From: Escherichia phage VEc74
Sequence record: MT932213.1
Length of the DNA stretch: 64,000 bases
Strand: one strand, 5' to 3'
This document shows positions 9,741 to 12,605 of the stretch, one piece after another (position 1 is the first letter of the stretch; each line of letters starts with the position of its first letter). Below the pieces are notes generated by a model. It was given only the letters and a program-made list of their open reading frames with translations, was not told the DNA's origin and ran no database searches. A program made the translations under genes and the position numbers.

Positions 9741-9809
9741 GTTATCGAGTTGGTGCCATTATATACATCATTTTCTGATTGTGTTTTGTGTGCTTTCAAA
9801 ACGAAGAAA

Positions 9810-9823
9810 GGGGCCGAAGCCCC
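9810..9823 (-). terminator. GGGGC-UUCG-GCCCC hairpin downstream of hoc (minus strand)
   Basis: Perfect stem; T-rich tract follows on minus strand. Confidence 0.6.
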
Positions 9824-9829
9824 TTATGA

Positions 9830-11248
9830 TTATGGATAGGTATAGATGATACCAGTTTCTAAAGCAGTTTTATGAATGATGTATCCATTACGCGATTCTT
9901 GGACATCAACTTCTGGATAATCTTTCATCATCTTCTGAAGAGTGTAACGATGCAGGTAGTATTTACTATCTGGATCTTCAGTTTTCCAATCTTTACCTTC
10001 TTCAGTCATTTTTTGAATTTCATCCATAACCCACCAACCACACCAGATGTAAGCTGAGCTACGGTGTGGAAGAGGATGAACATAAGGTAATTCACCTTCT
10101 GGTTCTGGAGCAACTTTATCAGTTACCTGAACTTGACCTTCTGCCGTAATAGTTTTGCTATCATAATCAGCAGCAGTAACAGTTGCAGTAACTTCAATAG
10201 TTTGACTTCCAATAGATGAGGTATCAACGGTATATACATTAGTTGACCCTTCTACAGGAGAAGAATCTTTCTTCCATGAATATTCAATTTGCGCTTCTTC
10301 TGGAGCATCAGTGACATTAGCAGTAAATGTAGCCGAAGCATCTTGTTGAACGTTAATAGAAGGAGGAGTCAATGTAACCTGTGGATTCATTGTCTTCTTA
10401 TTAACCGTTAATGATACTTCATTAGAAGTAACTTCCTTTTCATTGTAATTTTCAGCAGTTACTTGAGCTACGCATTTAATTCTTTTTACTCCACTTGTAG
10501 TTGGAGTATAGTTAAATGTAGAGTTAGTTTCTCCACCAACTTGTGAATCATCTACATACCACTGATACGTAGCAGATGCTCCATCAGGTTGAGAAGCTAA
10601 GGCAGCAGTAAATTGAACTGGGGTTCCGATAACTCCCGCTGGAGGACTATCAGGAGTTACTGCCAAAGTAGTTGTCTGCTCCTTTTTATTAACAGTCAGT
10701 GATACTTCATTAGAAGTAACTTCTTTTGCATCATAATCTGTCGCGGTTACTTGAGCCACACACTTAATTGTTTTAACTCCGCTTGTGGTAGGAGTGTAAT
10801 TGAATGTAGCAGAAGTTGCTTCGCCCACAGGAGAACCGTCAACGTGCCATTGATACGTAGCAGATGCACCTGGTGGCTGCGAAGTTAAGGCAGCGGTAAA
10901 TTCAACAGCTGTTCCAATCACTCCAGCAGCAGGACTATCAGGAGTTACAGCTAAGGTGGTCGTTTGTGTCTTATTTTGAACTGTGATAGTTGTAGTAGCT
11001 TCTGCTGTTTCAGCATCAGTATCTGGGACTGGGTTTGTTGCAACTACTTTAATAGTCTTTTGACCGGCAGGTCCTTTTAGTACATAATTAAAAGTTGCTT
11101 CAGCTCCATCTTGTGGAACATCATCTACAGTCCAAGCATATGTAATAGGTCCATCTCCAGTTTGACCACTGGGTGTAGCAGTAAACTGCTGAGTCTGATC
11201 TATAACTCCAGTAGGTGTTTTAGGAGTTATATCAACTGTAAAAGCCAT
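9830..11248 (-). CDS. hoc: Highly immunogenic outer capsid protein Hoc, 4 Ig-like domains plus capsid-binding C-terminus
   Basis: 472 aa; N-terminus MAFTVDITPKTPTGVIDQTQQFTATPSGQTG and C-terminus ...YIIHKTALETGIIYTYP match T4 Hoc; two near-identical ~95-aa Ig-like units in tandem. Confidence 0.9.
   Translation of the reverse strand: MAFTVDITPKTPTGVIDQTQQFTATPSGQTGDGPITYAWTVDDVPQDGAEATFNYVLKGPAGQKTIKVVATNPVPDTDAETAEATTTITVQNKTQTTTLAVTPDSPAAGVIGTAVEFTAALTSQPPGASATYQWHVDGSPVGEATSATFNYTPTTSGVKTIKCVAQVTATDYDAKEVTSNEVSLTVNKKEQTTTLAVTPDSPPAGVIGTPVQFTAALASQPDGASATYQWYVDDSQVGGETNSTFNYTPTTSGVKRIKCVAQVTAENYNEKEVTSNEVSLTVNKKTMNPQVTLTPPSINVQQDASATFTANVTDAPEEAQIEYSWKKDSSPVEGSTNVYTVDTSSIGSQTIEVTATVTAADYDSKTITAEGQVQVTDKVAPEPEGELPYVHPLPHRSSAYIWCGWWVMDEIQKMTEEGKDWKTEDPDSKYYLHRYTLQKMMKDYPEVDVQESRNGYIIHKTALETGIIYTYP
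10390..10985 (-). repeat. Tandem ~300-bp intragenic repeat in hoc (two adjacent Ig-like domain units)
   Basis: Two consecutive ~297-bp units with long identical runs, e.g. gatacttcattagaagtaacttc and ttacttgagc in both. Confidence 0.75.
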
Positions 11249-11257
11249 AAGTTATCC

Positions 11258-11938
11258 TTATTTTAATGTTACGAAAGAAGAATTGCGTGTTTCACGAATT
11301 AAAACTGATCCGTCACGGTTAATGTAATAAATTAAGCTAAATAAAGTTTGGTGTGCTGACGCATGCTCAAAACTTGTTGGGTGAGATTTCCAATCCGGAG
11401 TTTCAGCGATCCATTGATAAATCCACCAAGGAACAGTGCAGAATCCTGGATTTTTTCCAATCAGCTGAAGATTCGGACTAAAGTTTTCCGGAAGAGTAAA
11501 TACAGACGGCTTTTCAGATTCAATAATCTCAGCTACAGCCTGTTCGAATTTTTCTTCAACAAAAGGAGTATCTTCAATCAAAACATCGGTATTTTCAGGA
11601 ATTTTATCCGTTTCTACTACTTCAATTTTAATGTCAGATTTAACTGGAGAATCAATCAGAAGTACTGCTTCTGGATTGACTTCTTCATCGTCATATTTTA
11701 ATCCCTCTGCGGCATCAGCAGCATCAATTAAGTCTTTAATAGATAACCCATCAGTCTCTGGCATAGGTTCACTAGCGAGCTTCTGGAGGGCTTCTTCAAT
11801 ATCAACAACGATATTATCAAAAGATTTATTCTTTTTGACCTTTATACCAAACTGTTCAGCATATTCAGCTAATTTAGCTTTAGCTTCTTTATTATCATCA
11901 AGAGCCTTCAGCTCTGCAATATAATCTTTATCTATCAT
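11258..11938 (-). CDS. inh: Inhibitor of prohead protease (Inh)
   Basis: 226 aa, acidic, position between hoc and segE as in T4. Confidence 0.7.
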   Translation of the reverse strand: MIDKDYIAELKALDDNKEAKAKLAEYAEQFGIKVKKNKSFDNIVVDIEEALQKLASEPMPETDGLSIKDLIDAADAAEGLKYDDEEVNPEAVLLIDSPVKSDIKIEVVETDKIPENTDVLIEDTPFVEEKFEQAVAEIIESEKPSVFTLPENFSPNLQLIGKNPGFCTVPWWIYQWIAETPDWKSHPTSFEHASAHQTLFSLIYYINRDGSVLIRETRNSSFVTLK

Positions 11939-11987
11939 AATATTTCCTCAGTATAAATATAGATATATTTATTACTCGGAAAATAGT

Positions 11988-12605
11988 ATGTACCACTTTG
12001 TATATGAAACAACAAATCTAATAAACGGTAAAAAGTATATAGGAAAACACTCTACTGATGACTTGAATGATGGTTACCTTGGTTCCGGTAAGGCAATTCA
12101 GCAGGCTATAAAGAAATATGGTGAAAACAATTTCTCTAGAACAATACTAAAAGAGTTTAAAACTTCCGAAGAAGCGTACATGTATGAAGAAGAAATTATA
12201 ACTCCTGAAATAATAAAAAGCAAAAATTATTATAATATGAAACCTGGTGGAATTGGTGGAATTGTTATGACTACAGAGGTTATAGCAAAGATGAAAGAAT
12301 CTTCCGCTAAGAGATTTGAAAACTCACCGGGCACGGTATTAGGTACAACTTGTTACACTAATGGAACTAAAAATATTTTTATTAAACCTGGAGAACTTGT
12401 TCCAGAAGGATTTGTAAAAGGAATGGTTCATCCTAATAGAAAGTCCAGAAAAGGATGTAAAGTCAAACCGACTACCACAGGAACTTTTTGGGTCAATAAC
12501 GGTGCAATAAATAAATTAATACAACCAGACGGTATTATTCCCGACGGATTTATTAAAGGTCGTCTCATGAAAAGAGATTCTAAAGGCAAATTTAGTAAGG
12601 CATAA
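11988..12605 (+). CDS. segE: GIY-YIG homing endonuclease SegE
   Basis: 205 aa; N-terminal YHFVYETTNLINGKKYIGKH...YLGSG is a GIY-YIG motif; position between inh and uvsW as in T4. Confidence 0.88.
   Translation: MYHFVYETTNLINGKKYIGKHSTDDLNDGYLGSGKAIQQAIKKYGENNFSRTILKEFKTSEEAYMYEEEIITPEIIKSKNYYNMKPGGIGGIVMTTEVIAKMKESSAKRFENSPGTVLGTTCYTNGTKNIFIKPGELVPEGFVKGMVHPNRKSRKGCKVKPTTTGTFWVNNGAINKLIQPDGIIPDGFIKGRLMKRDSKGKFSKA

Follow-up and report, generated by a model that had tools for sequence, protein, structure and literature searches.

Adherence to mucus and mammalian surfaces is attributed to Hoc more often than to any other phage protein, and T4 nanoparticles rely on Hoc as their main display scaffold. 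The Hoc of phage T4 (1131 bp, 376 aa; PDB 5vf3 and 8t1x) carries three Ig-like domains and forms a fibre of about 180 Å (PMC10385173). In the 650 Hoc homologues surveyed, a conserved anchor bears a string of 1–10 Ig-like domains (Fokine et al. 2023, PMC10385173). The Hoc of Serratia phage Muldoon has 10 Ig domains and 1174 aa (PMC10385173), and that of phiPNJ-9 is without domain 3 (PMC11853027). Residues S183, L184 and T185 of domain 2 of the PNJ-9 Hoc were reported as MUC2 contacts (PMC11853027). A copy-number series of domain 2 in Tequatrovirus is absent from both PMC10385173 and PMC11853027, and a full-text literature search returned no paper on such a series, although it may be mentioned in older Hoc papers.

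The window analysed here is a stretch of 64,000 nucleotides from Escherichia phage VEc74 (MT932213.1), of which the first 25 kb are ~97% identical to several Tequatrovirus genomes. The gene order rnlB, 24.2, 24.3, hoc, inh, segE (GIY-YIG endonuclease) and uvsW matches that of T4 exactly, and hoc, flanked by 24.3 and inh, keeps the place that it has in the late structural region of T4. The minus-strand open reading frame at 9830..11248 specifies a protein of 472 aa, exactly 96 aa more than T4 Hoc, and both lengths were given correctly in the earlier note (about 376 aa for T4). The protein matched PHROG 1149, "Hoc-like head decoration", with an E value of 1e-144, and in a phmmer search against PDB it aligned with T4 Hoc chain 5vf3_Z through residue 472 (E 2e-219). 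Like the Hoc proteins of Muldoon and phiPNJ-9, which are distant or differently truncated relative to VEc74, it combines a conserved C-terminal anchor with a variable string of Ig-like domains. The features of the locus are as follows.

9830..11248, minus strand: hoc coding sequence, 472 aa, coordinates including the stop codon; four Ig-like domains and a capsid-binding domain
10970..11248, minus strand: Ig-like domain 1, aa 1–93; AF2 beta-sandwich with block pLDDT 81–93; 88% DNA identity to T4 domain 1, dS 0.28
10682..10969, minus strand: repeat unit U1, aa 94–189; first domain-2 paralogue, "extra" relative to T4; high-confidence Ig-like fold (AF2)
10394..10681, minus strand: repeat unit U2, aa 190–285; second copy, to which most of T4 domain 2 is orthologous; PKD/Ig Pfam matches
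10106..10393, minus strand: capsid-proximal Ig-like domain, aa 286–381; orthologue of T4 domain 3; Pfam Ig_3 and I-set at aa 289–373; AF2 support
9833..10105, minus strand: C-terminal capsid-binding domain, aa 382–472; PHROG 21694; low AF2 confidence
9808..9825, minus strand: intrinsic-terminator-like hairpin, GGGGC-TTCG-GCCCC followed by a T-run, just 3' of the hoc stop codon

In phage ATK47, the site of the hairpin carries a terminator annotation. The minus strand from hoc to uvsW (11249-11990, upstream of inh-hoc) contained no exact copy of the T4 late-promoter motif TATAAATA, and the sole nearby copy of TATAAATA is at 11952-11959 on the plus strand, preceding segE.

The N-terminal part of the protein was recognized as a linear string of Ig-like domains by Pfam, AF2 and Foldseek. 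An AF2 model built on 31 aligned Hoc proteins (mean pLDDT 83.7) showed four beta-sandwich domains at approximately aa 1–93, 94–189, 190–285 and 286–378, mostly with pLDDT >90, followed by an alpha/beta C-terminal domain of lower confidence. The Pfam PKD match scored 35.9 bits against a cut-off of 23.5, and Ig_3 and I-set were also matched. The top Foldseek matches in PDB were four-Ig fragments of Sidekick, Dscam and ICAM-5, that is, generic multi-Ig proteins and not RB49 Hoc, so that this search supports the fold class only. The capsid-proximal Ig domain is distant kin of U2 (40% over 65 aa, E 2e-9). The C-terminal domain is homologous to T4 Hoc residues ~281–376 (phmmer, PHROG 21694 and 1149), differs from T4 by one non-synonymous difference in 91 codons (dN/dS 0.03) and is invariant in the 31 aligned Hoc proteins.

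A repeat search identified two 288-nt (96-aa) copies, at 10394-10681 and 10682-10969, with 76% identity, and TRF reported a period of 288, 1.9 copies and a score of 707. The span of 10390..10985 proposed in the earlier note was therefore right within a few bases. U1 and U2 are identical at 220 of 288 nt (76.4%), and the 68 differences fall 13/10/45 at codon positions 1/2/3. At the protein level, BLASTP gave 78/95 identities (82%, E 6e-55), well above chance, or about 81% overall, despite near-saturated synonymous sites across 10394-10969. Two adjacent units of about 95 aa are indeed present, as had been claimed; the accompanying figure of ~80% DNA identity was slightly high, and "nearly identical in protein" was too strong. 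The longest in-register exact run between the two units is 24 nt, and near-identical copies with long exact matches, the mark of a recent or slippage-prone repeat, were not what was found here.

The age of the repeat was estimated from dS and dN calculated by the Nei-Gojobori method. U1 and U2 differ from each other with dS 1.35, which is near saturation, pS 0.63, dN 0.115 and dN/dS 0.085, and in the central third of the unit pS reaches 0.75 and is saturated. The corresponding dS values between VEc74 and T4 are 0.28 for domain 1, 0.35 for the last Ig domain and 0.15 for the C-terminal domain. These values indicate that the split of U1 and U2 long predates the divergence of VEc74 hoc and T4 hoc, and that both units are under strong purifying selection. 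The saturated synonymous sites may simply reflect age, or the DNA divergence may let the repeat persist in a highly recombinogenic phage.

Domains 1, 2 (U2 in VEc74) and 3 of T4 Hoc are orthologous to those of VEc74, with 86-90% DNA identity. U2 is 91% identical in DNA to T4 domain 2 (dS 0.23), whereas U1 is 80% identical (dS 0.76). T4 domain 2 is mostly a U2 orthologue, which makes U1 (aa 94–189, lying after domain 1 and before the T4-like domain 2) the extra domain relative to T4. The claim of an extra Ig-like domain, a tandem paralogue of domain 2, was upheld by the T4 comparison, AF2 and BLASTP, and the possibility that T4 Hoc might have the same length and the same four units did not materialize, T4 Hoc being a protein of 376 aa with three Ig domains. 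Unlike the separate units of VEc74, T4 domain 2 is a mosaic of both: U1-like at nt 1–57, U2-like at 60–216, with a U1-like patch at 225–246, and then U2-like again.

A megablast of hoc against 50,697 phage records matched 682 of them. Of 50 full-length hoc genes sampled at even spacing, 20 measured 1419–1425 bp and 30 about 1131 bp. A search with a single unit matched 890 places in 616 records, and 22 of 60 records in an evenly spaced sample of these matches had at least two units. From these samples, about 37–44% of the roughly 616 public Tequatrovirus-type hoc genes can be estimated to be multi-unit, among them those of the long-known phages RB27, AR1 and PST. Hoc length does vary among related isolates, a comparison that the earlier note had proposed, and the two-unit form is not peculiar to VEc74, being carried by ~40% of them. 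The following copy-number series was obtained from hoc genes extracted from 27 genomes.

One unit, 1131 bp: T4, RB14, RB32, PhiZZ23 and CM8
Two units, 1419 bp: VEc74 and nine others
Three units, 1707 bp, 568 aa: KMB26 (L039, 1022-2728) and ESh16 (L041, 732-2438)
Four units, 1995 bp, 664 aa: slur03 (L040, 734-2728)

Among the best 120 protein clusters in a large protein collection, 78 are of 376 aa, 29 of 472 aa and 7 of 568 aa, and the nearest 472-aa cluster, with 167 member sequences, shows 96% identity. The 472-aa Hoc proteins of vB_Eco_Some, G2540, SHFML-11, slur02, RB27, AR1 and PST have the same arrangement as VEc74 (domain 1, U1, U2, domain 3 and the C-terminal domain) with 90-98% DNA identity. 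VEc74 belongs to this group, within which only allelic differences are seen, including a 6-nt indel in AR1 hoc and a frameshift in the PST record. The Hoc proteins of 568 aa (KMB26, ESh16, UGKSEcP1) and 664 aa (slur03) share the unit family and the order of unit types with VEc74 and contain three or four 96-aa units, including a type, U3, which VEc74 is without.

Some records and neighbouring genes deserve separate mention. The hoc reading frame is interrupted by frameshifts in T6 (L031), T2 (L032) and PST (L037) and by an internal stop in SCS4 (L024), and the annotation of T2 splits hoc into three fragments. Either true pseudogenes or errors of sequencing could account for these interruptions. 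T2 is known to lack Hoc. ATK47 (L030), pEK20 (L043) and mar005p1 (L042), which are classified as Mosigvirus, carry a Tequatrovirus-type hoc with ~87-91% DNA identity. Both one-unit and two-unit forms are present among the Mosigvirus-classified phages, and the distribution suggests exchange of hoc between the two genera. The segE gene at 11988-12605 on the plus strand adjoins inh-hoc and encodes a protein 99% identical to T4 SegE, against only ~89% DNA identity between the hoc genes of VEc74 and T4; in KMB26, no gene lies between inh and the helicase gene. It is a matter of speculation that breaks made by this mobile endonuclease ~1 kb from hoc might promote recombination there.

The units fall into types whose order is constant. 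In ten two-unit genes, the first slot was of U1 type and the second of U2 type in 10/10. Only 12 differences between U1 and U2 are strictly fixed in these ten genes, all at unit nt 90–208; towards the unit ends polymorphisms are shared, and breakpoints can be mapped there only to a limited extent. The third type, U3, emerged from protein-level clustering of all 96-aa units. The multi-unit architectures are ordered subsets, namely U1-U2 (29 clusters), U1-U3, U2-U3, U1-U2-U3 and one four-unit gene; U1 preceded U2 and U2 preceded U3 in 48/48 multi-unit proteins, and a reversal was never seen. Adjacent units showed 74–79% DNA identity in all 13 multi-unit genes examined, and none of these 13 had near-identical adjacent units.

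Single-unit genes carry U1, U2, U3 or a chimeric unit. Those of U1 type are found in CM8 (97.6% identical in DNA to VEc74 U1; a Shigella phage), SCS4 and L005, those of U2 type in PhiZZ23 (98.9% to VEc74 U2) and Sa45lw, and 5'U1-3'U2 chimeras in T6 and IME339. Removing U1 from the VEc74 gene gives almost exactly the hoc of PhiZZ23 (25 differences in 1131 nt), and the CM8 gene is close to that of VEc74 without U2. The 78 single-unit protein clusters include 30 chimeras of 5'U1-3'U2 polarity and 10 of the reverse polarity, with only 9 and 6 distinct breakpoints, respectively. At the DNA level, every clear interior breakpoint in 15 single-unit genes was 5'U1-3'U2. As proof of the direction of change, the polarity of the chimeras is suggestive, not decisive. 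The earlier note had named the repeat as a likely hotspot of recombination or slippage. Across the phage population this holds for recombination, given the forms with 1–4 units, the chimeras and the genes of PhiZZ23 and CM8; slippage within one phage stock is unlikely and stability is expected, given the mere 76% identity of the units and the lack of any in-register exact run longer than the 24 nt mentioned above.

Several explanations of the four-domain Hoc were considered. The reading that accords best with the data, to which we assign a probability of roughly 0.7, is that the gene encodes a functional Hoc fibre in which old U1 and U2 paralogues have been reshuffled by recombination, and that the T4 form is most likely a reduced one. 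The anatomy, age, distribution and recombinant patterns behind this reading were observed directly, and the loss in T4 and an effect on adherence would follow by inference. One competing idea, a recent tandem duplication of a T4-like domain 2 in VEc74 or its immediate ancestor, possibly adaptive, accounts for two adjacent similar 96-aa units and for the 96-aa excess over T4, and for nothing more. It is very improbable: a dS of 1.35 between the units stands against 0.15–0.35 in the flanking domains, both U1 and U2 have orthologues in many phages, as seen in ten genes, and the architecture occurs in ~40% of related genomes. The synonymous divergence and the orthology of the units across phages rule it out, and with it the notion that the duplication is recent or specific to this isolate. 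Assemblies are known to go wrong at tandem repeats, and for this general reason a mis-assembled repeat adding 288 bp to hoc was also weighed. The 68 of 288 differing positions would place reads unambiguously, the open reading frame is intact, and dozens of independent assemblies, including those of RB27, AR1, slur02 and SHFML-11, show the 1419-bp architecture with 90–98% identity. An artefact, which the earlier note had itself raised, was rejected on the diverged copies and the agreement of many independent genomes, and is the least probable of all the explanations.

A more serious contender reverses the direction of change. U1-type and U2-type units would be long-diverged alleles of a single-unit gene, and one out-of-register, largely illegitimate crossover between them would have made the two-unit gene, so that the T4 form would be ancestral and that of VEc74 derived. 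Pure U1-type (CM8, SCS4, L005) and pure U2-type (PhiZZ23, Sa45lw) single-unit genes do exist, chimeric single units of both polarities are known, and the more distant Klebsiella T4-like hoc has one domain 2. However, such an origin leaves unexplained why deep divergence (dS 1.35) is confined to domain 2 between flanks with dS 0.15-0.35, and it needs further illegitimate events to account for the U1-U2-U3 and four-unit arrays, in which the order never varies. The bias of the chimeras of 30:10 to 5'U1-3'U2 is the polarity expected from deletion. In addition, PhiZZ23 and CM8 are 98-99% identical to VEc74 U2 and U1, respectively, and many two-unit genes only 86-92%, so that these two single-unit genes look like recent derivatives of a two-unit gene. 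We consider a gain by crossover between alleles unlikely, though with a real claim on attention.

According to the preferred reading of reshuffled old paralogues, one or a few tandem duplications of domain 2 would have occurred early in the Tequatrovirus-type hoc lineage, after which the copies U1 and U2 would have diverged under strong purifying selection. U1, U2 and U3 would now form an ordered array in the phage population, out-of-register crossovers in mixed infections would shift the number of units between 1 and 4, and in-register homologous recombination would yield mosaic units. VEc74 carries the common two-unit allele, and the three-Ig Hoc of T4 would most likely derive from a crossover between U1 and U2 close to the unit's 5' end. 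Loss of a unit by T4 is more probable than gain of one by VEc74, a direction that is not proven by the comparisons made here. The more far-reaching proposal, that domain 2 is generally an ordered array of ancient U1, U2 and U3 modules shuffled in 1–4 copies by unequal recombination between co-infecting phages, with T4 Hoc as a reduced chimera, is offered tentatively and at somewhat under even odds. The chimeric single units occur in both polarities, so that much of the mosaicism could have come from in-register recombination among single-unit alleles of U1 type and U2 type that already existed. Under deletion, the pure U1-only and U2-only genes need crossovers within ~20 nt of the end or the start of the unit. 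Moreover, the Klebsiella T4-like hoc, the closest other group examined, has a single domain 2, which makes the one-unit state ancestral at a deeper level.

The T4-like Hoc proteins of Klebsiella phages belong to the same family, with an overall protein identity to VEc74 of ~48%, and they too have gained or lost Ig modules of ~95 aa (471 aa in Marfa, 377 and 282 aa in its relatives). In Marfa (L007, 1501-2916), the capsid-proximal Ig domain is duplicated and not domain 2, with a period of ~282 nt and 74% identity. This is an independent event, and separate lineages have repeatedly changed the number of their Hoc domains. Another Klebsiella T4-like record, L006 (1501-2919), also has the capsid-proximal Ig domain in tandem duplicate, the copies in L006 and L007 being 69–74% identical; L008 belongs with L006, L007 and L012 (1501-2349) to the Klebsiella cases of differing Hoc domain number, and the 282-aa form is without domain 2. 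Position 31-3150 of L015 (IMG/VR UViG 2706796453) holds an open reading frame of 1039 aa with many Ig-like repeats and then a Hoc capsid-binding domain at the end, and is thus an exceptionally long Hoc like that described from Muldoon.

The C-terminal domain of VEc74 Hoc is one residue off that of T4, so its binding at the centre of gp23 hexamers should be unchanged, and by homology one VEc74 Hoc monomer would be expected per gp23 hexamer centre, dispensable for growth. Four Ig-like domains, one more than in T4, would project outward from the capsid. Since the T4 fibre with three Ig domains is about 180 Å long, the fourth should add roughly the length of one Ig domain, and we infer a correspondingly longer fibre with a second domain-2 surface. 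The S-L-T motif of the MUC2 contacts is found at aa 183–185 in U1 and again at aa 279–281 in U2, a correspondence of sequence only. The fourth Ig domain may alter adherence or have an adaptive role.

The four-Ig Hoc of VEc74 is an ordinary and already catalogued allele; such proteins are in public databases, and variable Ig number has been published. As a discovery it is minor, and the population-genetic aspect, in which old paralogous modules are reshuffled in 1–4 copies, is modestly interesting. The numbering and domain names of "T4 Hoc" are not directly transferable to ~40% of therapeutic T4-like isolates. If the ordered-array proposal is true, the saturated synonymous divergence of the modules would let multi-unit alleles survive the very active recombination of T4, and the array would act at the population level as a "length and valency dial" for the capsid fibre. 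Natural T4-type phages carry Hoc fibres of 3, 4, 5 and 6 domains made from the same few modules, and these natural length variants are ready for testing fibre length and valency against mucin binding, immunogenicity and display.
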